Below are positions 117 through 47,089 of a stretch of DNA of 64,000 bases, piece after piece (the first letter of the stretch is position 1; each line of letters opens with the position of its first letter). Under the pieces are notes generated by a model. It saw only the letters and a program-made list of their open reading frames with translations, searched no databases and had not been told where the DNA came from. Origin of the DNA: Marsupella aquatica (Eukaryota > Plantae > Marchantiophyta); the NCBI GenBank assembly GCA_973895155.1, contig OZ316896.1, positions 22,463,722 to 22,527,721 of the forward strand, given 5' to 3'. The position numbers and the translations under genes were made by a program.

Positions 117-212
117 GGCTAAGCCTGGTAATTGGCCATTTAGGACCAATTACCAGTACGATGTGCTAAGCCTGGTAATTGGCCATTTAGGACCAATTAC
201 CAGTACGATGTG
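117..212. repeat. Tandem duplication of a ~48-bp unit (intronic)
   Basis: gctaagcctggtaattggccatttaggaccaattaccagtacgatgt occurs twice head to tail. Confidence 0.85.
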
Positions 213-347
213 CTACAACACTCAGAGCACAGGAAATGGTAGCAGAACAGAGGGACCCAACAGGCAAGGACATGAAGCGCTTTCGTTCTGAAGGTAACTT
301 TTGTTTAAACCACGAATCCCTTCGCAAGAAGCCAAGGACTGACTTAC

Positions 348-1639
348 CTTGCATAACGGATAGTGTTGCCACAGGATCAATTGCTGATATCAAGGAACCA
401 AACATCAAGGACTCCAGAAGTGGAGAGTCGGGGCTCATGTGTGTGATGAGACCCGCCAGGTGTAGAAAGTATGTGCATAGTCCGTACACAAGAGAGGATA
501 CAACGGTCCCCACCACGGCAAACAACAGAATTGAAGTGAAGTTGCGGAAAAAATCCTGCGGTGTAACAAAGAAAGTTCCCGTCAACAATATAAGTCGCAC
601 CAAATCATTAATTCATGTAATTCAGCCACTGCTCAGCATCTTCCGTCCTCTGCAGTTATCTACCATCGTCCAATCCCATTCAGAATATAAGAATTCGGAC
701 CACCAACAACCTCAGGTCTCCGTGGCGATACGCATTAATTAAGGATTGGCAAGCTGCAAACCTTCTTCTTCAACGAGTAACCAGCGTTGAATATTATGAT
801 TGGCAATAACCCGTAGAAAAAAACTTGGGGGTCGAATCTCAAATGTCGTCCATCAAGGAAGATCGTAGAAACCACTCCAAAACCCATTCCCAGAAGCATT
901 GCCGATGCTGCATCCACCGACAGTTTGACTCACTTTGACTCTTGTTTGGAACTAAATAGAGAACCAAAAAATATATATAGCATTTCAGGGTACCACCCTC
1001 CTATGGCTTGGCCAGAGATTTCAACGATCCACAACTTCACAACAGATATGAATTCCCCGAGTTTAGCTAAGGAATTCCAAAAGACGAATGACTGGCCATT
1101 CTTGAAAGGTTGCATGGCCCATACGATAGTCCTGCATTCTCTGCCTACAAAGGAATGAAGCTAAGGTTCTCTGAAACTGCAGTGGGTCTTCCATGATTCG
1201 CCAAAACATAGGATGACAATGTATCATATCCCCAATTTACAAGGTCAAACTCGTAGACACTACAGTGATACTGTAGATTACTGGCCAACCCTGACGAGAT
1301 TAAGACCAAGCAACGATCACGCCATAGCGGCCTCGAGATCTTATCCTCCATCTGCTATTCTCAACATCTATATGTGCGCAACACCATGATTTCTACATAC
1401 CACAAACACCTGGTAGATAGAACATGTGCACGAACGGAATTAGAAGGACGGATAGAGCGTTACTTACCTGATTCCGGCAAGTAAATAAAGTGGTACTTCT
1501 TCGTGATGTAGGCAATGAACAACGCAATCAAGAGGAGAAAGCAACAGAGCAAGACATCCACAGAAGTTGCCATTGCTTCTGCTGCTTTCGCGTCCAGAAT
1601 GCTGCTCGTTGGAGAGTCCACAGAAGGCACAAGATCCAT
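348..1639 (-). CDS. NHX: CPA1-family Na+/H+ exchanger (NHX/NHE8-like), first three exons; the gene continues past the window start
   Basis: Exons 1639-1468 (MDLVPS...[11 protein letters not shown]), 907-762 (ASAMLLG...[20 protein letters not shown]) and 555-348 ([17 protein letters not shown]...[16 protein letters not shown]). All have GT-AG borders and join in frame. YLPE, LLP-IIF-AG and FGSLISA-DPV are CPA1 motifs. Confidence 0.92.
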
Positions 1640-8640: not shown

Positions 8641-10024
8641 ACAAGGACAGAGAGCAGGGAAAGAGAGCTATGAGAGGAGCATAGCGTTCCCCCTGACCAT
8701 GACCATATGGTTACTAGAACAACCTCTAAACCCGCAGCTTCAAGGCTCCCCAAATGTTATCTCCGCCACCCTCACAATACTCTTGACTTGACTTTCTTCC
8801 CCACTAGCACTCGGACATATCTTGATTATCCAGGGAGCGCAGAGGCGGGTGCACAGCTAGTACGTAGCAAAGAGAAAAGCTGCGAGCCAACAAAGACTAA
8901 GGGATCACAGAGATTCCAAAATTGGTAAGAAACATGACTGCCCAACGTTTAAACGCTTCCCATCACATTAACAAAACCATTTCGAGAAAAACTGCACGGA
9001 ACCATAGATACGCAAACGTAACAAGGTGCTCATAGATTTGATAATCCACTAGATTTGGAGAGTCGGGAAAAGCCGTACGAAGATCGAAGTACGAAGATAT
9101 TTGCTAGACACACATGGCGAACCCCAATATTGGAAACGCTGTGCTTGAATACGTGACAGAAAGTCACTTCTCTATTATTCTCTCGAAATGGTGCATGGTG
9201 GATATGACGGTCGCAAATTTCCCCAAGCCAAGCTGTACTACGTTGCTCGAACAGTGAAGCTGAACCTGCAACTATACTTTTAAGTTCATCTCAAATTATA
9301 CCATACAGGGTGCATCAGCAGCACAGTGCGTTGCTGTGCCGCCGGAAATTATACAGACCATAAACTATACTACAAAAAATCACCTACAACTACCCGATGA
9401 GCCACCACCAGCTACCAACCTCCTTGAATGGTTGGTTACAAGAAGATATTACGTGAGCTTGGCGGGTCAGCTACAAGAAGATGTAAGGCAAGCTTCGCAT
9501 CTAAAATAAGGTCATATCGGTCACTAGAATACTAACCAGTAACTGTAAGTTACAATTGCACTCCAGCAAGGTGTAGAGTACATAAACGTCACGTTTCTCA
9601 ATGCGCTGCTACGGAGGCTGCCGCTGCCTAACTTATAGTAATCCACTCTAGTAAATTAGAGTGACGAGCAGACCAGAGCGGCCACTCGCCGGTAAGCACA
9701 AATTGCTACGGCATGCCCACTACGTAGACAGCAATCTCAACTATGTTGAGGTTTTGATAATTTGCCTTGACAGGCGTTTGGCGCCACATTTCAAGGCGAA
9801 ATCGTCAGAGGTGTACTTAGAACCAAGTGTACACAATTCATACACAAGCTTCCAATTTCCGTCTGCGAAACACCCTCAGCGCTGAGCTGAGCTTTCAAGT
9901 TGCTCTTCGCATTCAGGAAGTCGTAGACCGGTGAATAAGTCGAGCTTCACGCAGATTAAATCTCTGCGAAAATGCTTATACTTAAAAAGTACGGAGCAAG
10001 ATGTCCGACTCTTCAAAATATTCC

Positions 10025-13000
10025 TCACAGCGAGGTCATCGTAACTGTGCCCATCTTGTAAACATCCACGCGCTTGACGTTCACCGGAGTGGTACCATTG
10101 TTGAAGAGGAACACACCCGCGTTACTGTTCAAGGCGATCTGTGGGTATACTCGTGCTGTGATTGCAAATCTACCCCCTTGCACAAATGTTTCTACCATCG
10201 AGTGATCGACCTGCATTCATAGGTATAGCAGAGAATTGTGAGCGTGGCAATACTGATAAAGACAATCGTTATCAAATTTGATGGAGGTACTTACTATCGA
10301 TATTTGGAGAGCCATTTTCAGCAACAAACACTTATGCCAGTGGTAATGGACACTTACAAGGATACGAAGAGAGAGCTCAGTTTCTTGCGGCATAACCGTC
10401 AAGTAGCTTCCATAGACGGTTTTGTCGAGGCCCTTCGCCTGCGAGGACTTGCTCTGATCGCTGCACACCCTTGTGCTCCATTCTCCATTCTTTCCATGAG
10501 AGATGAAGAAGAAAATGCCTGTGTGCTCGATGAGCTTCTCATCCGCAAGGACGAGGACACCAAAAGGACCAAACGTGCCTCTCTGTGCAGATCCTCCTTG
10601 ACTGCAGTCGAATTCTTCCATAAGATCGGGATTGAATTCGCCAACGGCGCTCACATTGGGCCTCTCAAATGTGACCAATATATCTAACTGTTAACAAAAA
10701 CAAGTCAATCGTTAGGTAGTGTTCAAACTGATTGCAGAAAGCTTTAACTATACCAGTTTTCAGCGCAAACAAGAATCGCAGTTTCTGAGGCATAGCCCGT
10801 AACTAGGAATCAACGACCCGATAAATAGTTTATCAGTACGACACAGTCTGATAGGCAGACCCATGGCCCACCAGTAAACTCCCTTCCGACTACCTCTCAA
10901 CAAATTCATGCATACTCCGACAATTAAGATTGAAGACGAATGAAACCTACGACAGAAGCTATAACCCCACCAATCCCTTAGATGCAAATCGGAGGCCTGT
11001 CGAAGAGCACAATTAGATTGGAAACATACGAGGAGTCCCAACAACACAGCAACACGGGGAGAGTACCTAACCCATTGGGACGTTGCGGACGATTCCGCTA
11101 CGCTGATACGCGAATAAACAAAGAAAAGAACTTCTAATCGAAGGCAGAACATGCAGATACGTAAACGACATAATCATTAGCCTACAGTCACGCTGACGTA
11201 AGGTTCAACCTATCCCACGGACGCATGAAAAAAGCCTACTGGAAGATCCGACGAACGCAAACTCGTACCCCTACTTGAGAGACTTGGAGAGGAGATCGAC
11301 CTCTAAATAAATGAGCAAGTACCACTGACGGGTATATTCAACACAGAAACAAGAAGCTTTGTGTGAAGAGTGGCTACTACATACCTGGTTACCGTCGCCC
11401 CCCTTCACTTTCCATGTCTCTGCGGGCTTCAGTGCGATGTTCGTGTGACTGGTGTGGGAACTGCGCAGTTCCTCCACTTCCTCGACAGGCCAGATGAGCA
11501 AATTCGATTTGGTCATTGGGTCGAGCCATATAGCCCTGGGAATAGCCTGTTAAACACAACACGAAACTATCCATCAACAATGCAATTCTGATGAAAGATC
11601 ACAGCATTAGGAAGTGTGAAATGAAACATCTTGAGCAACGAATAATCCGAGGAATAAAAACAGGAGAAGGCAAGGCCGCCTACCATAGCACAGGCCCAGC
11701 CTTTTGACACATCATCTGTTTCGCTGTCGGACTCATTGACGTAACCCCAAAGAATACGTCTGCGAGTGGTTGGGTCGAAGAAAGTCTTGGAGGCGTAGAA
11801 TTTTCCCCAATCATAACGGAGACCAATACCCACGTCAATCGACTTGTCGTCGGGAGTGAACTGGTGTGTCTCCAAAGAGTAGGTACCAATAGCATAATGA
11901 TCGTGCCTGAGTTCGTCCATGCTTGCCTTCAACACGTACTTGATGTCATTATGGTAATGCTCAGCATGATTCTCGGTATCGGGCCAATACCCTTTCCGCA
12001 GAACAGAGTGATTCGCTCCAATTTGACCTTCACTGAGAATTGGGTATAGATCGAGGCACTCCCACATCCCAGTTCCGGCCACTCTGTCCAGGATGGTACC
12101 AGTCAAGTTCCAATGATAGAAATCAGTGCTCGTGTACATCAAGGCAGCGCCATCTCTTGATCCGTCAGGATTGTCGATCCTCGACCCAAGGGCCACTCTC
12201 CACAAACCGTCGTCCTCGAGCCAAGCTGTGGTAGGATCTCTGAAGTCCTGAGGACGGATGAATTCGGGGTTCAGCATGATCGGATTCTGTTCTACCTTGT
12301 ACCATTTCCTTAGTAGTGGATCGGAAGGATCCTCAGGTAGAGCCATGTTCTGAGATTGCTCAGCCAAGCTGCTGAATGCAGTTCGTCCGCCGGTGTAAAG
12401 GATGACTGGGGTCCCGTCTTCGCGAATGGATGCATAGCCAGACCAAACACCAAAAACGTCGTACCATTCAGTGGGCCTCAGGATCTCCTCCAGATATATC
12501 CAGTGAACCAAGTCTTTGGAGACGGTGTGACCCCATCCAATATCTCCCCAGCTGGCGCCATTGGGGTTGTACTGGTAGAAGAGATGATACCATCCTTTGT
12601 AGTACAGAGGAGCTGTCAAATTCAATGAAAATGTTGTTAGAGGAGCGCAAAGAGCCTTCAAAAGGTATTGCCAGATTACTCAATTCGACAAGTCTACACC
12701 AAGGCAGATGTAGAGGAACGTCTGCCTACTGAATAAAGTTCACTGACGTGAGCCCCTCATTTCGGCTTCCCTTGAGCCGGTTACTTATGACAGCCAGGAT
12801 CACACTTCCACACTGGTCACGACCACTTATTGCTCATGTGTACGGAATGGAGGGAAACGAAAAGAGGAACGCTCGCGCATGCAAATACACTTCAGCATTC
12901 CAGACCCCTTCTACCGATTTCGTACACCCTGGTTTAAATTAAGTTCCCCCTGGCCGTTGATACAACCTTACAGGAGGCAGTTCTTCAACGCATGTTTGAA

Positions 13001-14004
13001 CGAGTCAGGGCACTTTCACAAGTGATCGAACATGGATGCTAACTCGGTGATCTACCTACAGTAGACTTAGAAGGTGATGGTACAGAAGGAGCTCAAATCA
13101 GAGACTGTTGGACTGTCATCTCCATAACGTGAGGGTTGGTTCTAGAAACAAAGTCTCTCCGACTCTACAGAACACCAAACGACTTCAAAGCTGTTCAATT
13201 GTTACAGATAAGTAACTCGGAGGATCAATGTATCTCCCCTGCTGTACAAGCTCGGAGGATCCATCTATCTCTCCTGGAAATGGGAGAGCCTACAGGACTC
13301 GGTGTAGGCACAACAGAATGGAGGGAAGATTCAAACAAACCAGAGTAGGGACACAGAGCGAGAGAGGGAACTCACCGCAAGGGTCTGTTGGCAAAAGCAG
13401 TCGATAGAGAGTCGATCAAACAGACAAGCGACAAATACACATGTTAGAGACTCCTCGATGAAGCTCAAGACTACAAGAGAAGTCTAATTGAAAAACTCAA
13501 GCTGCTATAGTCCAACGAGAAGTAAAATGACGAAGAAAACCAGGACTAATATGCCAGTATATATAGAGAGCAATAAAATAACCTTAGAACGACTATTTCT
13601 CGAACATGGACAGGAGGGAAGGGAATGGACGAGGAGACCATACCACTCATGTAATTCCGCTCGGGTTGGAAGTGAAAGGACAGGCGTTGTGATTTGAGGA
13701 ACTCGGCATTGTCGGCAGGCGAGTTCGCACCATCCCCGTCAAGGCCCTCAGTCTGCAAGTTGTAAGAGACGAAAACGGCGCTAGCGAGCAAAATGGCTGC
13801 AATGCAGCAAATCCCCACTACGAGGAGAGTGTTCCGGCCCTTCTGTGGAAGAAAGCCCCCTCCAACCGCCTGTCTCTCTTCACCACCAGCCTCTGCTTCG
13901 GGGAGTGCAACGTAGTCGCCATTCACACGGGAAATCCTATCATTCACTTGACTCTCAGGATCTACCTCCCTCAACAACGGCGACTCGATCTCAGAAGTCC
14001 CCAT
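10025..14004 (-). CDS. GH32 vacuolar-invertase-type enzyme with fructosyltransferase-like active site (candidate 1-SST/6-SFT-like)
   Basis: Exons 14004-13644, 13384-13376 (9-nt mini-exon), 12612-11684, 11546-11385, 10687-10358, 10210-10025, all GT-AG and in frame. N-terminal YVALP motif plus TM anchor, FHFQP, YMSDPCAP, HLFYQYNP, WSGYA, DFRDP, WECLD, GKFYASKTFFD, and a C-terminal beta-sandwich with LVDHSMVETF. Confidence 0.95.
13376..13384 (-). other. 9-nt mini-exon of the GH32 gene (ACCCTTGCG, encoding D-P-C of the sucrose-binding box)
   Basis: Minus strand reads ttttgccaacag|ACCCTTGCG|gtgag; it joins ...TAC ATG AGT G to CT CCT CTG TAC in frame. Confidence 0.93.
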
Positions 14005-15007
14005 CCTCCCCGCACTCACTTCGTCTCGTGGTCTTCAAGACAGACGATTCTTCTTTCAACCCCGACAAGAGATTGCTGTTCACGTGCAGAACTCGTTCTC
14101 GCTCACTCTTTCCCTCTATTGATCTCCTCCCTTTACAACAAACTGAGACCACACTACTCAATCCCTTGGCTGAAATACAGAGCTGCGCAGAGCTCGCTCC
14201 CACCCGCACAGCAATCCATCCAGCACAATGAGTGACTGATATGCCACGAAAGGAGTTTCCACTACTCCACTGTCTGCTGTCAATCAGTCCCTCTGGAGGC
14301 AGCGAGCTGCCAGTCTGGAAAATTATGAGAGGCACGAGAAATGTACGTCTCGGGAATTCGGAGCTCCCCTCCTCTCAACTCCGCAGAATCCCACTCAACC
14401 CACCGCACACTTGAATGTGCTACTACTCAAGCGAGAGATGTTGTCGACGAATTGAGTTGGAATATAGCGGAATCGCATGGAGAGTCGAGCGCCTCGAAGA
14501 GACGAAGACTGCCTTCGACTGCGGCTGCTGAGGGACGAGCGCCGTATTTATGCCCCGAGCAGGAAAATTCTGGCCGTCCAAACAAAACGACGAAACAAAA
14601 ATAAAATACTCTCACCACCGAACAGCTGTCACGTTCTTTCTCCGCGTAGTACGGGGTTCGAACCCAGGACAGCTGCTTGTTAACCAGGCGTTCTTCCCCA
14701 TCTAACGGCTGGCGCGCTTCTGGGGGAAGATCTCGACCGTTGGAACACTTGTATTTGAAATTGAGAGGTCGAGGATTTTAGTGTCGCGGTCAGGCTGGCT
14801 GGCGTAGACTGGCTCTCAGCGCGGGCAAAGGAGAGGAGGGAAATCAAAGACCTCCTCTGGTGTGGGACAGAAGCGAAAGGACGGACGGTCGGGGGCGCAT
14901 CGGGCAGAGGGCCAGGGTGTCCCGAGTGTTACTTTTGGAGAATCAACGTCGCCCATGTACAGTCCCCTGTCTAAGTGCAGTGCAGGCTCCCGGGAAGGAA
15001 CCCCAAA

Positions 15008-23640: not shown

Positions 23641-26600
23641 CTACTTGTGATGCAATTGCAAAACCTGCAATACGTCACGGTGTCTAGAGAAACTCTCCAA
23701 AGGAATCACTTTGGTAAATGCGTCAGCCGGGTTGAGTTTACCATCAATCTTGACTAGCTCAAACAAATTATCAGACACAGCCTGCCTGATAAAATGGTAC
23801 CTGACGTCAATGTGCTTCACTCTGCTGTCCATCACCTGGTTCACAGCAAGGTGGAGCGCACTTTGACTATCACAATGGAGCTTCACATTCCCCTGTGGCA
23901 ATCCCATTTCAGTGATAAGTCTATCCAACCAAATCGCTTCCTTTGCTGCTTCCGCAGCTGCAACATACTCCGCTTCTGTAGTAGACTGAGCAATACACTT
24001 CTGCAAAGTAGACCTCCAACTTATGCATCCACCGCCAAGTGTGAACACGTATCCTGTTGTTGATCTCCTTCGGTCCAAATCTTGTCCATAGTCAGAATCT
24101 ACATAGCCAATCAATGATCTAGCATTCTTTGCATTCGCATCAAATAAAAGACCATGATCCACGGTACCCTTCAAGTACCTGATAATCCACTTCACTGCTT
24201 CCCAGTGTACCTTCCCTGGATTCGACATGTACCTGCTCACCTTGCCCATAGCCATGGCAAGATCAGGTCTAGTGCAAGTCATCAAATACATGAGACTCCC
24301 CACTGCCTTGTCATATGGAACCTTTGACATCAACCCCTTCTCTGTGTCATCCGTAGGACAGAACGCTGATGATAACTTGAAGTGTGGAGCCAACGGGGTA
24401 CTTACTGGCTTGCTATTCTCCATGTTGAACCTTGCAATTACCTTCCTCGCATAACTGCTCTGCGTCAACCATAGCTTGCCAGCCTCCAAGTCCCTAGTGA
24501 TCTCCATACCCAAAATCCTCTTAGCTGGCCCTAAGTTCTTCATCTTAAACTCTGCACTAAGCAGTGCCTTGAGCTTAACAATCTCAGACCTATCCTTGGC
24601 TGCAATTAGCATGTCATCCACATAAAGTACTAAAACAATGAACCCAAAGACAACATTCTTCACCGGTTTCAAATACACACAAGGGTCAAATACACTTCTG
24701 TGAAAACCTTGTGACCGAATCCAATCGTCAAACCGCTTGTTCCACTGTCTTGGTGACTGCTTCAACCCATACAAGGATTTCAGCAATCTGCAAACCAATT
24801 CCTCCTGTCCTCTCTTCACAAAACCTAGCGGTTGTCTCATGAAGATCACCTCTTCCAATGTGCCATAGAGGAAAGCTGTGACAACATCCATCTGATCTAG
24901 GAGCAGACCAAACATTACAACAAGTACACACAATAGTCGTATTGTAGAGTACTTAGCAACTGGTGAGAAGACCTCATTATAATCCACATCTTTCTCTTGT
25001 GTGAATCCCTTTGCTACCAATCTAGCCTTGTAGACCTTCGATCCACCTCCTATGGAATTATCCTTCAGCTTGTAAATCCACTTGCTGTCCACCACTTGCT
25101 GACCCTTAGGCAGCTTAACAAGCTCCCAAGTTTTGTTATCCTTTAGTGACTGCATCTCCGTTTGCATTGCTGCAGTCCACTTCTGCTTCTCTTTTGAAGC
25201 ACTTGCCTCATGAAATGAAGAAGGTTCTCCTTCTTCCAAAATTAACGCATCACCCTCATCATCACCTGTAAAATCATCCTCTTGCAGTTGAGATGAATCA
25301 ACCCATTGTCCATACCTTGATGGAGCGCGTACAGTGCGACCAGATGTTCTTCTAGCCGATGACTCCGGTTGATCTGCGTGTGCTGGTATAATTTGAAGCT
25401 CAACAACATCCACTTGCTGCTCACCAGCATCAACAAACTTCTCTGGTTCCTCTGGCACAGGAACCAGCTCCATAATTGGAGCAACTCCTTCTCTCCGGTC
25501 ATGCACCTCATAACCAATCTCCCCCTCAACGAGATCCAGGATAGGAGATTTTCCTTTGTTAGTATGGGAGACCTGAGTATTCTCCCCCTCCTTCAATAAT
25601 CTGGATTCATTGAAGGAAACATCCCTACTGACAACGAGCTTACAGGCAATAGGATCCCATAGCCTATAGGCTTTCACACCACTCTGGTACCCAAGAAAAA
25701 CACATTTCCTGGAGGTAGGATCCAACTTGGTCCTATTCTGCTTTGGTGTGAGAGCATATGCATCACTTCCAAAAATTACCAAGCCATGATAGTCTGCTTG
25801 CCGCTTATAGCGCATCTCAAACGGCGTTTTGAAATTGATAGCACTAGAAGGAGAAAGATTTACCAAATAAGCTGCGGTATTGACAGCTTCTGCCCAAAAT
25901 TCTTGTGGTAAACCTGATTGGCTCAACATACTCCGTGACCGCTCCAACAGTGTCCGATTGAGCCTCTCAGCGACACCATTCTGCTGCGGAGTATAAACTG
26001 TGGTGAGATGGCGAGTTATCCCCTGTTCTGAACAGTACTCTTCAAATTCCATTGAAGTGTACTCCCCGCCGTTGTCTGACCTCAGACTCTTCACCCTTGT
26101 ATCCAAACACTTGATCGTGTTTCCAGTCTGATTCTCCACCTGGGCCTTCCACTTCTTAAAAATGGACAAGACATCAGACTTATGTGTCATGAAATAAATC
26201 CACACAAATCTTGAGTAATCATCAATAAATGATACATAGTACAACTTTCCAGAGTGTGAGGGAGTCGGGGATGGACCCCACACGTCACTATGTATGTACT
26301 CAAGAACCGCTTTGGAACGATGAGTTCCAACACCAAAAGCACGACGATGCTGCTTTCCAAGAATGCAATGCTCACAAAACTCTAATTTACAAGATTGCAA
26401 ATCAGAAATGAGTCCATTCTTCCGTAAGATAGCCAAACCCTTCTCACTCATGTGGCCTAGCCGTGAATGCCACAGTTGAGTCATCTCCTCGTGAGACTTG
26501 GTTACATTGGCCTCTCCACATACAGTATTGCCCTGTAACACATACAAATTCTTTTGTCTACTCCCCTTCAAAATCACTGTCTCTCCCGACCTGACTTGAA

Positions 26601-26868
26601 GTTCACCATCAATAACGCTCCATTGATGACCATTTGAATCCAACACACCGAGTGAAATCAGATTCTTACGCATGCCAGGTACATACCTGACTCCGGACAC
26701 TATGCGCACAGCGCCATCAAACATTTGAATCTTCACTGACCCAATTCCCTCAATTTGACAGGAGTGATCATTTCCCATCAGAACTGAACCGTTTGAAACA
26801 GAGTAAGAACTGAAAAACTCACGAATATAACAAATATGAAAAGAGCAAGCACAATCAAGAATCCACAC
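23641..26868 (-). CDS. pol: Copia pol: protease, integrase, reverse transcriptase, RNase H
   Basis: WILDCACSFH (PR); HSRLGH..CEHC, DVWGP, RSDNGGEY, AERLNRT (INT); KARLVAKG, QMDVVTAFL, LYGLKQ, YVDD (RT); TEAEY, CDSQSA, ADAFTK (RH). Confidence 0.97.
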   Translation of the reverse strand: MWILDCACSFHICYIREFFSSYSVSNGSVLMGNDHSCQIEGIGSVKIQMFDGAVRIVSGVRYVPGMRKNLISLGVLDSNGHQWSVIDGELQVRSGETVILKGSRQKNLYVLQGNTVCGEANVTKSHEEMTQLWHSRLGHMSEKGLAILRKNGLISDLQSCKLEFCEHCILGKQHRRAFGVGTHRSKAVLEYIHSDVWGPSPTPSHSGKLYYVSFIDDYSRFVWIYFMTHKSDVLSIFKKWKAQVENQTGNTIKCLDTRVKSLRSDNGGEYTSMEFEEYCSEQGITRHLTTVYTPQQNGVAERLNRTLLERSRSMLSQSGLPQEFWAEAVNTAAYLVNLSPSSAINFKTPFEMRYKRQADYHGLVIFGSDAYALTPKQNRTKLDPTSRKCVFLGYQSGVKAYRLWDPIACKLVVSRDVSFNESRLLKEGENTQVSHTNKGKSPILDLVEGEIGYEVHDRREGVAPIMELVPVPEEPEKFVDAGEQQVDVVELQIIPAHADQPESSARRTSGRTVRAPSRYGQWVDSSQLQEDDFTGDDEGDALILEEGEPSSFHEASASKEKQKWTAAMQTEMQSLKDNKTWELVKLPKGQQVVDSKWIYKLKDNSIGGGSKVYKARLVAKGFTQEKDVDYNEVFSPVAKYSTIRLLCVLVVMFGLLLDQMDVVTAFLYGTLEEVIFMRQPLGFVKRGQEELVCRLLKSLYGLKQSPRQWNKRFDDWIRSQGFHRSVFDPCVYLKPVKNVVFGFIVLVLYVDDMLIAAKDRSEIVKLKALLSAEFKMKNLGPAKRILGMEITRDLEAGKLWLTQSSYARKVIARFNMENSKPVSTPLAPHFKLSSAFCPTDDTEKGLMSKVPYDKAVGSLMYLMTCTRPDLAMAMGKVSRYMSNPGKVHWEAVKWIIRYLKGTVDHGLLFDANAKNARSLIGYVDSDYGQDLDRRRSTTGYVFTLGGGCISWRSTLQKCIAQSTTEAEYVAAAEAAKEAIWLDRLITEMGLPQGNVKLHCDSQSALHLAVNQVMDSRVKHIDVRYHFIRQAVSDNLFELVKIDGKLNPADAFTKVIPLESFSRHRDVLQVLQLHHK

Positions 26869-26913
26869 ATCATCTGCTCTCCTAGATGACGTGCATAGGG
26901 CATACCCCCGACT

Positions 26914-27948
26914 TCATAAAACATACTCATCATTGAGTAAATCAGCTTCTCCATCAGCCCTAGCCACATTTGCCGATGAAGTTTCCGCTGCCTTTCCCTT
27001 ACAGTCTCGCTTGAAGTGTCCAACTTGGTTGCACTTCCAACATGTCACCTGCCTCCTCTGAGGGGATTTACCCTTGGACTTAGATCTGGATTTAGATCTA
27101 AACTGGGTTCTACGGTCCCCAGTTGGTCGCTGCATACTCTTCCCACGGTTAACATTGAGGGCAGCACCAGATGATGAAGGCTGTGACGTGATGTGCATCT
27201 TCTGCTGAAGATCATCATTAAGCAGAGAACTTACCACGTCATTGTATGAAATGGTATCCCTATCACGATGCAACAACACTCGTGATAGGGACTGGTAAGA
27301 TGGAGGCAATGAACTAAGAAGCTGCAGAGCCTTCGTCTCATCATTCAAAGTCTCCCCAAGGTTTTCCAAGTCAACGACCATGTCGTTGAAAGCATCCACA
27401 TGGTCTTGCAACTTCGTACCAGATTCCTTCATCCTGAAACTCATCAGTTTGTAAGAAGTGTAGAGCCGGTTCGACAACTCCTTGCGGTGATACTTGCTCT
27501 GCAATTCCGCAAACAAGGACATGCAATCCTTATGTGCACCCAACTGCTTGATGATGGGAGGCATGAGATAGAGTGTAACACACCACACTCCCTGCTCCTG
27601 CATGCGGTCCCATTGTTTCTCATCAACATCGTCTTCACGAGGGCTCAGCAGTTGGCCCATCCCTGACGCATAAAGCACTCCCTTCACTTGCTTCTCCCAT
27701 AGCAAGTAGTCAGAGCGCCCATCATACTTTGTCACTTCATACTTGGGTCCCCCAAGCTTGAAAGTCCCCATCTTCTTCTTTACCGTGAGCTCCGGTAGTA
27801 CTACTGCTTCCTCCACCACACGCCGCACCGGTGATGGTATCGGTGTCACGTGCTCTTCCTCCTGCTCCTCTCTCTGCCCCTGAAACCTCCGCGGTGATCC
27901 TCGTGCTTCAAGTTCCACGTCTTCGAAAAACTCCTCCGAATCACTCAT
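26914..27948 (-). CDS. gag: Copia gag
   Basis: KYDGRSDYLLW, LLSSLPPSY and the zinc knuckle CWKCNQVGHFKRDC. Confidence 0.95.
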   Translation of the reverse strand: MSDSEEFFEDVELEARGSPRRFQGQREEQEEEHVTPIPSPVRRVVEEAVVLPELTVKKKMGTFKLGGPKYEVTKYDGRSDYLLWEKQVKGVLYASGMGQLLSPREDDVDEKQWDRMQEQGVWCVTLYLMPPIIKQLGAHKDCMSLFAELQSKYHRKELSNRLYTSYKLMSFRMKESGTKLQDHVDAFNDMVVDLENLGETLNDETKALQLLSSLPPSYQSLSRVLLHRDRDTISYNDVVSSLLNDDLQQKMHITSQPSSSGAALNVNRGKSMQRPTGDRRTQFRSKSRSKSKGKSPQRRQVTCWKCNQVGHFKRDCKGKAAETSSANVARADGEADLLNDEYVL

Positions 27949-29102
27949 ATGAGAAAGTCACAAAAAATGTTGTTTTTCACAACTTCTCAAAAAACTCAAA
28001 ACTCAACACCGCCGCGTAGCCCACAAAGCTAGGAGTCCAATACTGAAAACCGAAATCAAAATCGAAATTTGACGGAAAAGTTATTCAAATTTCGGTCGAG
28101 GTGGGTAAAACCTTGGGAAACTCCCCCGTTTTGACCACCTCAGGGAATAACCGAAATACCAAGTACAACCCGTTGTCGGAATTGCGATGTGATTGGTGCG
28201 CTGCATTGCCAACTTCAATGGCTACGACCTCGCCGAAAAATAACCAAAAAAGTTACCGTTCGGCGGATGAAATCTTTGTCGGACGGTCAAAAAATAGCTC
28301 TCTGGTTTTTTAGAATATTCTATGACCCTTGTACAGGCCCTGTGGGAATTTTGGAAGAACAATCGAGGGGCTGACATGTGTCCTCGAACCCCCAAAACCC
28401 CCTACCACCCTTCGTCGTCGAAATCTGGTCGCGCGCGCAGAAAATACACACGGCAGAATGTACCCCTCGACACCAAACGCAAGATATCTCACTCGGGTTT
28501 TGACAAAATCAAGATCCGATTTCAGATTTGGAAACTAGACTCCGAGGCGATGAAGATCGATATAAGAAGCACCCAAAACGAGGAAAGAACGAGGGAGAAA
28601 AAAATTGGTAAAGATGACAGATTTCTCTCAATTGCCATAGCCAATTTCGAATCAGTTTTTCAAAGAGAAAAAAATGGTACCTTGTCAACAACGAATGTTG
28701 ATCAATTGCACTTGGTGCCGTCACCAAGTCCAACAAGGTAATTGATTTTGCTTAGCCTTCCTCTTTGCATCAAAGAGCCAATCCCGGACTCAAAAACAAT
28801 CGTCTTGCCTCAATCTCTTCGTTGAGTCAAAACACTTGACGCTTCTCCCTCCGAGTTGATTGCCAACTTTCTTCACAAAATCCAGAACGACGAAAACTTA
28901 GATCTCTCTGCACCACGAGCTCCGTTCAATGATTTCTTCACACCGTTAGAAAGCTCTTGCCCTGATCTATCCGTTGAGCCCATAAACTCCAAGTTCCATG
29001 CGATGGAACTCTGGAAAATCCACCAACACTCAACGCTGGAAAAACCGTCATGAAATCCCGTCACGAACACACGTCACCTCCCAAGCATGCTCTGATACCA
29101 AT

Positions 29103-38892: not shown

Positions 38893-41101
<2,209 letters not shown>

Positions 41102-41359
41102 CTCGCTGCTCGCGATAGAGCAGGCGACCGATCGAATTGCTCGATGTGGAGGATTTGAGGCTCCGCTTCCCACGCTGAGAAAAACTGGAATCGATCCGTG
41201 GAACGAACACTACGATAGAATCGATGAATACGTGAGGCGATAGAACAATGCAAAGAGTACTTTGCTTCAAAGGCAATAAAACTGGAGGCGGTAATAAGGG
41301 TCGTTTTACAGCATCTGGAGATCCTTATTTTAGGGATGAGGGCTAAAATAAGGGTGGTT

Positions 41360-43292: not shown

Positions 43293-45665
43293 TTAAGCTT
43301 GTGATTGAGAGTAGATAGCAGGGTTCAACCGAGGCTTAGCACGCAACAAAAGTGGAGTCGCTGGACGAGACAAGGTAGTAATCACCTCCGCCTTGTCAAT
43401 GTCGTCGATTGTCTTCCCAGGTAGCGGACTCCAATCAAAGGCATGAGCGAGAGTGGCAATCACTCTCTGAACCGTCAGCAGCCCCATCGGAGCCGCTGGA
43501 CACTTCCGCCTCCCACTTCCGAATGGAAGCAAGCTGAAGAGATTCCCCTCTGTGATATTGATCTTTTCCTTCGAGTTCATGAACCTCTCAGGATTGAACT
43601 TCTCAGGGTCTTCCCAGTTAAGAGGGTCCCGAGCAATGAGTTCAACGTACACAAAGACAGTTGTGTTGGCAGGGACGAAGAACCCTTGCACGGTCGTTGC
43701 TTCTGCGGAGAAGTGGGAGACCAAGAGAGGAACAGGAGGGTGCAACCGAAGGGTCTCATGAATAACAGCTTGAAAATATGGCAGCTTGGGGTAATCAGAC
43801 TCCTCCACGGGTCGCTCTTTGCCAACTACTTCGTCCATCTCCTTTTGCAGCTTGGTGAGACAATCTGAGCAAAAATTGGCAAGGCATCTTAAATGTCAAC
43901 AACTATTTTACAGCTTCGAAAGGGTCTCTCTCTACGCATCAGAATACGTGAGTCGATTGGATTTCTAGTTGTTCTCTTCATTTTGTTGCGAGCCTGGTTG
44001 CGAGCATGTTGTGTCGTGTTGTATTGTGTGACTTATTGCACGTGATTAATTGGATACCGTCATGGACTTAGCGAGTCATGGTCCGAAAGCTTTCTTGTAC
44101 TCAGGGGGCGGCAAGATGTACGGTACAACGAAAAGGAAGTGATCACAACAATTTTCCAGATTCCCTTTTACCTGGATTTGTGACGAGCTCCAGGATACCC
44201 CACTCTGCAGTGATAGCACTACTGTCCGTTCCTCCAACTAGCATGTCGAAAAGAGAGCCCAAAACAGCGTTCTCAGAAATTTTCCCCTCGTCATGAAGTT
44301 TCAGCATAGTGTCCAGAAAGTCTGTGTCTGTGGAGCGCTTATTGGTCCTCCTCGCTTCTCTGTGATCCTGAAATCACAATTCCAACGATCGCAATTCCTA
44401 AGAAACACATATCTTCAATATATTCTATTCTCTGCATGTCAGCATGTCGACACAGGATCCAAACTTGATCCAAAATTAGTGCTGCTTTCCTGCAACGCTT
44501 CAGTTCCGTGAACTGTACCTCAATACTCTGCCCGAACACCCTACGACAGAGCTGGTTGTACTCCTTAAACTCTTTGGTGCATCCTTGATAATTCACCAAA
44601 GCAAGCCATGGGAATATGTCCCCGAGATTCAGTTTCAAAATGAGATCAGTGGCGCTGCGGATAATGTCAGGGCAGTGCTTGAGCTGGTCCGTTTCGGAGG
44701 TCAGTGAATCAGAGTACCGCCTTCCGAAGATGAGCGAGCAGAGCAAGTTGACGGTCAGGTCGAGGGTCGACTTGCCCACGTTTATGATACCTTCTGAGTT
44801 TATCTGCCTTTGGATGTCCTCCGCCAGAAACATACCTGCAACAAGTTTGTTAACAATGAGTGCACCTTGAAACACAGTTTGTATCTGTTGTGGTCGTCCA
44901 TCCGAAACAAGAGATGTGGCACAAGTTATGATTCCAAACTCGAGGAGAACCTACTACTCAAATCTCCATGAATCAGAAAAACGAGTGTTACACCATGAAA
45001 ACACTGTATCTTGATGAATTACACCATCCAGCAACCGTCCGAGTGTTGGCATCCAGTCTCTAAATTAATAAAAGATCAAATTATCATGGAATTCACGGCA
45101 ACGACGTGAGAAGACTCGGTTGATCCAAATTAAAGCAAGAATTGTCCAGATAGCTCGTACCTTCACGCCTCCTCATGTTCACAAAACGGTGCTGCGCAGA
45201 GAGATTGAATACATTCACAGTGAGCAACTTCTTCAAGTTCTTGTGTGCCTCGTCATAATTGGCCAACAGAATGTCTTCGCAGTCAAACGCCATGTACTTG
45301 GCAGCGGATTTCAAGATTGCATTGATTGGTCTATTTGCGAATACAACATCCTTTGTCTTCAGAACTTCCTCGGCTCCCTCCGCTGTACCCACAATGAGTA
45401 TCCCATGCGAACCGAGACGGAAATAGAAGATCTTCCCAAACTTTTTGGCCATTTTTTTGTACCACTCGCCAATGTTTGCCTCTACTGAGAACATGGCACC
45501 GACCACTGGCAGATTGAGAGGACCTGGCGGTAGATTGGCCCTAGATTTGGATCCCGGGAAGGTCTTGATTACGATCAGCCCGAGAACGACTGTCACAGTG
45601 ACCGCAGCTAAAATCTTCGTCTCCAATTCATTTTCGAAGAAGATTTTCTCCACCCACTTGCCCAT
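43293..45665 (-). CDS. Cytochrome P450, CYP71 clan, 4 exons, apparently intact
   Basis: Exons 45665-45161, 44835-44519, 44367-44172, 43864-43293 join in frame. TM anchor, LPPGP, I-helix GGTDSS, ETLR, PERF and heme motif PFGSGRRKCPA are present. Confidence 0.95.
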
Positions 45666-47089
45666 GATGGCTGTTGAAGTCGTAGATCCCGTTGCCGTCC
45701 ACAAGCCCTTAGCGAAAATGAGATTTGTGAGGTTTCGCAGCATCAGGCCACAAAGTAGAATGGAAATGCATACTACTTGTGATTGCAAGTGTTCGAGTCT
45801 TCAATAGTTTCTATATGGAATGAATGAAATGGAATGTGCATGTTACTCTTCACCGGAAAAGCTACAGTTACTGATGGACAGAGTAGGTGCCTGATTTTAA
45901 CAGCCTCATGTGATGCCTGATGCTTTACTTTTTGTCGGGTAGTGATGTGTAAGTGGATAAAATTAGAGAGTAAAACTAGAATACATATTAAATGTGAATT
46001 GGATAAAATAATATAAGCAAAGCACATGCAAATAAAAGCACATAGTGACCCATGAAAAGTAAAATTAAAATTTTATGACACAAAGTTAAAAGCACATAGT
46101 GACCCATGAAAAGTAAAATTAAATTTTAAGACACAAAGTTATTAGTAGTTGTGCACTTATTTCAATGTGCCTTATTCATGACACTCATTTCAATAAAAAC
46201 CATAAACTATATATATCAAATTGCCAAAAAATAGAGGGTGCCGAACCGAGAGACATGATCCCTCAGGCAAAAGACCCAATCAAGGGGGGGACCACCAAGG
46301 GGCCAAGAAAAGCAAGACACCACATAACAAAAGCAAACCCAAAGACGAGGACCTAAACGCCTACCTATCAACAAACAGGAGAGCCTGGTATAGCTTTGGT
46401 GTGAACAGCATGGGAGGGTCTAAGCAAAGGAATCCTACTAGAGGCCCTAAGACCAACAGCCTCCCCCCTACGAAGAATAGTGAATGTGTGTGCCCGCTGA
46501 AGCGCAACAGACACCCTCTGTCTAAAGAATGTGGTGATGACAAACACTGGGGGATGACAAACACGGTGGCTGACCCATGAGGCAAGGGTGAGGAAGACCC
46601 AATCAAAGGCGCATGGATGTGGTAAATATAACAGAACTCATGTACGAAAGGGGGCCCAAAGAGGACTTACCGATAGCCAAGCCCCCAACCAACGCCCAAA
46701 CCGGATAAGAGAGTGCCCGTACCGAATCTGAGAGTGCCTCAGATAGCATGTTGGAAAGGGTATGTCGGTGCATGCGATCAGAAATCACCTGTTGGACTTG
46801 ATCTGGGCTGTCCAAAACAACTCCCTCAAATGCAGGGACCACGCTCTACATGTCCTCCGGCAATAATGACCGTGCATGACAAAGCTGGACCTGAAACAGG
46901 AGAGCTCCGTTCTCCACTCCCATGACTGAGTCAGAGAGGATAGACCGAAGGTGTTGAGCTATGACGTCTTCCTTTATGACAATACAATCGTGACTCATAC
47001 CATGCTCACGTCCAGTCGACACAATCCATACAAGAGGAAAAGAAAAGCAAAGATAAGAAGGAAGCATGACAACGAATGAAGCTTTGTAG

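Follow-up and report, generated by a model that had tools for sequence, protein, structure and literature searches.

The window analysed here is a 64,000-nucleotide (nt) stretch of contig OZ316896.1 from the liverwort Marsupella aquatica (positions 22,463,722 to 22,527,721), and it holds one gene of family GH32, which an initial annotation had proposed as a gene for a fructosyltransferase, an enzyme of fructan synthesis. The gene runs along the minus strand from 14004 to 10025, and splicing by coordinates joins its six exons into a coding sequence of 1977 nt that encodes 658 amino acids (aa) with zero internal stops; its five introns are all GT..AG and total 2003 nt. Its parts are as follows.

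13644..14004, minus strand: exon 1 (361 nt), with the start codon, a cytosolic N-terminus carrying EIESPLL and DYVALP, a basic stretch, a hydrophobic anchor, FHFQP and the Y-M-S of the sucrose-binding box
13768..13827, minus strand: predicted membrane anchor or signal segment (aa ~60-79), resembling those of vacuolar invertases
13376..13384, minus strand: exon 2, a mini-exon of 9 nt that completes the nucleophile Asp121 and encodes Pro-Cys (DPC, not DPN)
11684..12612, minus strand: exon 3 (929 nt), the bulk of the GH32 beta-propeller (PF00251, E 6.5e-75)
11385..11546, minus strand: exon 4 (162 nt)
10358..10687, minus strand: exon 5 (330 nt), beta-sandwich domain, with full-length alignment to orthologues
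10025..10210, minus strand: exon 6 (186 nt including the stop codon; PF08244, E 1e-11)
aa 118-124, minus strand: sucrose-binding box, YMSDPCA (invertase form WMNDPNG)
12431..12445, minus strand: WSGYA (canonical W[ST]GSA), with a Tyr183 common to onion and Agave 1-SST
12233..12244, minus strand: FRDP, the transition-state stabiliser, intact
12056..12064, minus strand: WEC, with the acid/base Glu309, intact
11900..11923, minus strand: SMDELRHD, with its DELR core at 11906..11917, the flexible-loop Asp/Arg couple (Asp356/Arg359), intact
11741..11749, minus strand: WGY (canonical WGW)

The motifs and the catalytic triad lie at or around the places in the spliced protein that the initial annotation had given for them, and its proposal that the box is split over exon 1, the mini-exon and exon 3 holds up well. 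Between exons 1 and 3 there are seven stretches of the form AG-(9 nt)-GT/GC, of which only 13384-13376 yields D-P-x-x, and skipping it loses the nucleophile Asp. The identical junction is found in four independently annotated orthologue records, P0004 and P0209 from Calypogeia fissa and P0210 and P0220 from JGI/IMG. The last two are complete proteins of 661 and 658 aa whose contigs are no longer than 3402 and 4125 nt, respectively. JGI/IMG gene calling does no splicing, and given also the 2003 nt of introns in the window gene, these records most plausibly represent spliced mRNA from the orthologues, as distinct from the window copy. Just upstream of the mini-exon, intron 1 holds a high-copy short repeat (~13421-13538) at a depth of up to ~50x that of its flanks in DNA run X1. 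Runs X1-X4 also contain, over window positions 10000-14100, extra copies at ~90% identity besides a near-identical one, which would fit a second subgenome or a close paralogue; scored singly, 22 of 33 exon differences between copies are synonymous among the differences listed. The contigs of these runs span introns, with no joint at exon boundaries among the matches listed.

GH32 enzymes act by retaining double displacement with an Asp nucleophile, an RDP stabiliser and an EC acid/base (PMC3360783; PMC3713406), and the window protein has these three residues together with the propeller and beta-sandwich domains (PF00251, PF08244). Its ascription to vacuolar invertases by architecture is borne out by a long anchored N-terminus, an acidic isoelectric point (4.9 for the whole protein, 5.1 for the mature part) and a tree position away from cell-wall invertases. 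Hydropathy peaks at 2.9 (19-residue window) at aa 59-61, and the N-terminal motifs of exon 1 are also present in liverwort paralogues. The hydrophobic segment at aa ~60-79 and an isoelectric point near 5 fit a predicted vacuolar-type enzyme.

The active site departs from this background. A canonical hydrolytic vacuolar invertase has WMNDPNG and W(G/A/S)W, and the window protein has neither; it shows the pattern of plant fructosyltransferases, namely W->Y/F and/or N->S in the box together with WGW->WGY/F. In wheat and onion invertase mutants, disruption of the hydrogen bonding around the nucleophile reportedly explains the shift to transfer. The same box changes and WGW->WGY/F are published marks of transfer ability (PMC4600902; PMC3713406; PMC3487962). 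The flexible-loop Asp/Arg couple has a described role for which the right geometry is needed too (PMC3713406), and its presence as DELR agrees with the Asp/Arg or Asp/Lys couple of sucrose-donor (S-type) enzymes, a necessary but not sufficient feature. Fructan exohydrolases (FEH) and Asparagales-type FFTs, in which the couple is lost or is Asn/Trp, are not matched.

These motif states are stable among relatives. The closest single-domain match is a C. fissa protein with 93% identity over exon 3, and full-length identity is 86% to the C. fissa orthologue (CAM6116621.1) and 77% to P0220, a JGI/IMG member of the liverwort clade. P0004, P0209, P0210 and P0220 all carry YMSDPCAP, WSGYA, MDELRHD, WGYV and GWACA. 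C. fissa has at least seven clusters of such GH32 proteins, among them two paralogues, P0024 and P0026, with FMSDPCA, WSGY and WGY or WGF (CAM6115791.1, CAM6104416.1), a canonical paralogue, P0020/P0214 (CAM6104512.1), and three proteins (P0021, P0028, P0039) with a WMN box and no D/R couple. The window gene thus belongs to a family of three or more paralogues of this type. Retention of the canonical P0214 is the pattern expected after duplication.

Bryophytes do not normally have YMS/WSGY/WGY, a possibility that the initial annotation had named as one that would undo its proposal. C. fissa P0214, Logan P0015 and the Physcomitrium, Ceratodon, Sphagnum and lycophyte proteins have WMN and WG/A W, and Marchantia has FMNDPNG with WSGSA and WGW. 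Named moss, lycophyte, fern and gymnosperm proteins have WMN and the terminal W (the box is absent in one fern model), and the other bryophyte matches have WGW, WSW or WAW and WSGS, the sole exception being one moss-clade protein cluster (WGF). A search of 50% representatives brought up 144 new rows, none of them another transferase-like protein from a liverwort.

To put numbers on the motif changes we used a sample of 278 full-length relatives (500-730 aa), which includes near-duplicates, is biased to best matches and contains no named Asteraceae or grass transferase. Trp occupies box position 1 in 255 of the 278 and the last WGW position in 257. Box position 1 is Y or F in 19, the box Asn is replaced by S or A in 17 (33 are gapped there), WG[YF] or an equivalent occurs in 21, and WSGY in 12, of which eight are liverwort proteins and four are Asparagales 1-SST-like. 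The numbers of proteins at each level of a five-site score, from 5 down to 0, are 12, 2, 3, 4, 18 and 239. Eight of the 12 in the top class belong to the liverwort clade, and the other four are the 1-SSTs of onion and Agave, an Asparagus protein that is labelled 6G-FT-like and clusters with the Agave enzyme, and an unnamed protein outside the tree; scores of 4 or 3 belong to five further Asparagales-type transferases. As for the box named in the initial annotation, neither G->A in DPCA nor W->F alone is diagnostic.

The changes also coincide with those of 1-SST beyond chance, as the claim of convergent substitution had it. Of 164 columns with 90% or higher conservation in the background, eight are changed in the liverwort clade and 12 in three Asparagales 1-SST-like proteins, and five coincide (118, 120, 183, 312 and 414; hypergeometric p 4.3e-5, with conserved columns assumed equally likely to change and the groups named with the motifs known). 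Four of the eight coincide with changes in Asparagales FFTs (p 2.7e-4) and none with those of Asparagales invertases. Six control clades have 0 or 1 change in common with the 1-SST set, a comparison of low power, as these clades vary at just 2-9 columns. Four other candidate markers, F312L, GWAC, DPxA and Y392W, proved non-diagnostic and were set aside.

That these resemblances arose separately is indicated by phylogeny. A maximum-likelihood tree was built from 60 selected proteins over 504 columns, with the five motif blocks removed. In it the window protein joins P0004 and P0220 (support 100/100) and then P0024 and P0026 (100/99), and this five-protein clade is nested within liverworts, together with Marchantia and the other C. 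fissa paralogues (100/100), whereas the Asparagales transferases nest within angiosperms. Uniting the liverwort clade and the Asparagales fructosyltransferases as one group costs 315 log-likelihood units and is rejected (p-AU 2.3e-44). A 43-row mixture-model tree and a 64-row tree are concordant with the main tree; in the latter, four unnamed transferase-like representatives all fall inside angiosperms, and two unnamed grass-like ones group with wheat invertase. An origin of the clade after the Marchantia split has support of 88/93 in the 60-protein tree and 95 in the mixture tree, and the 64-row tree gives no resolution on this point. The terminal branch of the window protein is short (0.06). 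The nesting among liverwort vacuolar-invertase-like proteins, away from angiosperm transferases, is therefore as the initial annotation had expected, and the window gene arose separately from those angiosperm enzymes that were tested. The trees are without named Asteraceae, grass and Pachysandra enzymes, and membership in the Asteraceae, Poaceae or Pachysandra transferase clades appears to be excluded on indirect grounds, because the window protein lies inside liverworts (100/100), those enzymes are of angiosperm-invertase origin (PMC3713406), and the four representatives fall in angiosperms.

Outside its clade, the protein is nearest to the liverwort vacuolar-invertase-like proteins P0214, Logan P0015 and Marchantia P0023/P0222 (53-59% identity), which have a similar N-terminal layout and low isoelectric point but retain [WF]MNDPN, WSGSA and WGW. 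Among known enzymes, the closest parallels come from the Asparagales set, seven proteins named fructosyltransferases and retrieved by an Agave invertase search. Onion and Agave 1-SST (P0250, P0257; 45-46% identical to P0004) have in common with the window protein the GH32 family, vacuolar-invertase descent, WSGY, D-x-x-R (as DDER), WGY and a Leu after the EC motif, and their boxes (FMADPNA and FQADPNA) combine an aromatic swap with loss of Asn. Differences are the Cys of DPCA, WGD for WDY and GWAC for GWAS. The Asparagales 6G-FFTs and 1-FFT have NDEW and WTGS, in contrast to the D/R couple and WSGY of the liverwort protein, so the liverwort set fits the 1-SST pattern. Compared by motif table, the Asteraceae and Poaceae 1-SST and 1-FFT enzymes resemble it in a [FY]xSD or YxND box, W[GA]Y and, in the 1-SSTs, D/R, but have [ML]TGS or LSGS and GWAN or GWAT (PMC4600902).

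Of the solved structures, the Pachysandra terminalis 6-SST/6-SFT (PDB 3ugf) is the top match both in sequence (E 3.8e-147, 42% identity) and, from a structure model of P0004 (mean pLDDT 84, helix at 58-79), in fold (target TM-score 0.95), and it has the box N->S in common with the window protein. This match confirms the modelled fold only; the rankings may merely mirror vacuolar-type ancestry, since the other plant chains listed are a cell-wall invertase and an FEH. An exon 3 loop (~12010-11960, aa ~325-347), just before the D/R loop, is ~15 residues longer than in 3ugf and of low model confidence, and could affect acceptor binding or processing. A disulfide between Cys123 and Cys431 is conceivable.

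Taken together, the intact frame and triad, the motif identity in orthologues at 86% and 77% and the conservation in three liverwort-clade lineages lead us to think that this intact liverwort GH32 gene probably encodes a sucrose-donor fructosyltransferase, most like 1-SST, that was gained independently of flowering plants. According to this interpretation, the protein would be anchored at its N-terminus and then delivered to the vacuole, where it would bind sucrose with the glucose part held by the Asp356/Arg359 couple. Glu309 would protonate the glycosidic oxygen and Asp121 would form the fructosyl-enzyme intermediate. W118Y, N120S, N123C, S183Y and W414Y may disfavour water as acceptor, so that a second sucrose, or kestose, would accept the fructose to give 1-kestose and longer fructans. 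We are less sure of product type than of transfer activity. The 1-SST/6-SFT-like label of the initial annotation is best kept in its first half, where the motif set fits Asparagales 1-SST, as it fits 6-SFT less well: by our estimate, a 1-SST-like product has close to an even chance, and a 6-SFT-like or multifunctional enzyme seems rather unlikely.

Several points weigh against this interpretation, beginning with the composition of the 278-protein sample and the assumptions and low power of the convergence comparison given above. Some of the changes are widespread: Leu at position 312 occurs in 34 of the 278 proteins, 16 of which are otherwise canonical, GWAC occurs in 20, DPNA is common, and Marchantia combines FMN with WGW, so single changes are not diagnostic. 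Nor is WSGY general among 1-SSTs, being absent from garlic 1-SST and, in the motif table of PMC4600902, from those of Asteraceae and grasses. The intact D/R couple, taken earlier as the mark of a sucrose donor, is present but is no proof, as wheat 1-FFTs retain DDDR though listed as fructan-donor enzymes (PMC4600902). The motif rules are also loose, since the Pachysandra transferase keeps the box Trp (WMSDPDG) and has WAW, FSGSA and D/Q. DPC recalls the DPCG of Agave 6G-FFT-1 (PMC3340406). On the biological side, our literature search, which did not reach most subscription journals, found nothing on fructan in Calypogeia or Jungermanniales, and Porella, in which fructan is documented (see below), belongs to another order; older reports of fructan in Jungermanniales exist.

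Of the alternatives, a vacuolar invertase with altered kinetics, mostly hydrolytic and possibly showing increased transfer on the side, survives best, although we consider it unlikely. It would account for the intact triad and D/R couple, the W->F change is already present in Marchantia, and single such changes occur in 18 of the 278 proteins that are otherwise invertase-like. The orthologues are named beta-fructofuranosidase or SacC in their source databases, but these names are automatic. The four diagnostic sites, however, change jointly, which elsewhere in the sample occurs only in named transferases and close look-alikes, and a canonical paralogue, P0214 of C. fissa, is available for hydrolysis. 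Decidedly unlikely is a transferase of other specificity, whether it elongates chains with fructan as donor, like 1-FFT or 6G-FFT, or passes fructose to an acceptor other than sucrose, for instance a polyol or specialised metabolite of liverworts. The DPC likeness, the overlap with changed Asparagales FFT columns and the D/R couple of wheat 1-FFT all speak for it, and three paralogues suggest labour division, but the N/W couple and WTGS of Asparagales FFTs contrast with the 1-SST-like D/R and WSGY found here. A decaying or non-catalytic duplicate under relaxed selection, or a wrong splice, is very improbable even with the mini-exon junction of the window copy predicted from DNA alone, given the open 658-aa frame, motif states identical across relatives at 77-86% identity, clade-wide changes at just 8 of 164 conserved columns and the short terminal branch.

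A wider possibility, which we put forward tentatively and hold to be somewhat doubtful, is that a complete fructan pathway arose in leafy liverworts by duplication of one vacuolar invertase, and another, separately, in mosses. Three xMSDPCA transferases would then exist, the window gene being a 1-SST-like starter and the two FMSDPCA paralogues further transferases, while paralogues without the D/R couple would be exohydrolases or fructan-donor enzymes. The moss side of this view is P0132 (662 aa; cluster members P0290, P0291 and P0293 from JGI/IMG and Logan), with WISDPCG, DDER, WGF and GWNT, which lies in the moss clade (100/97) and is a second bryophyte transferase candidate by sequence. A common origin of P0132 and the liverwort clade is rejected (p-AU 0.0015), and the overlap of P0132 changes with 1-SST changes (2 of 25, p 0.57) is not above chance. 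Vacuolar-type proteins with a WMN box and an altered couple, such as DTWA, QVWE, FMYW or IENG, occur in C. fissa (P0021, P0028, P0039/P0218/P0219), Sphagnum (P0100, P0101) and Physcomitrium (P0328), and may be regarded as candidate exohydrolases or fructan-donor enzymes; onion 1-FEH (P0229) likewise has an altered couple and is positioned among vacuolar invertases. Among angiosperms, the vacuolar-invertase-like P0114 of Cinnamomum micranthum has WAY, DDER and GWAC, with a canonical Persea protein as sister, and is a possible early transferase in Lauraceae.

Elsewhere in the window, all on the minus strand, we found the following, with no sign of a fructan gene cluster among the window genes.

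190-612, minus strand: Na+/H+ exchanger exon
23644-27957, minus strand: copia-type long terminal repeat (LTR) retrotransposon with gag and pol frames (Pfam gag, integrase, RVT_2) and one in-frame stop between them
40094-41209, minus strand: NKAP-like gene
43296-45800, minus strand: cytochrome P450 gene

Fructans have been reported in liverworts and Sphagnum (PMC4771763; bioRxiv 10.1101/2021.03.19.436135), and the statement that liverworts accumulate them is confirmed for hydrated Porella platyphylla, in which fructan makes up 59.0% of sugars (PMC5260972, Table 1). The plant fructosyltransferase origins listed in PMC3713406, at least four, are in flowering plants only, and our literature search, with most subscription journals outside its reach, found no liverwort or bryophyte fructosyltransferase, so an earlier description is possible. 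With named genes now available for expression, the question of liverwort fructan synthesis becomes directly testable. If our interpretation is correct, the window gene would place an origin of fructan synthesis in a more distant land-plant lineage than any known so far, and would be a strong example of active-site evolution repeating itself. Should the pathway view also prove true, fructan synthesis would have two additional origins beyond the flowering plants, and the liverwort enzyme and onion 1-SST would have converged even on the Tyr of WSGY. That Tyr and the Cys of DPC are candidate specificity residues for engineering fructan synthesis, and the gene may be relevant to sugar storage in bryophytes and to their tolerance of drying and cold.

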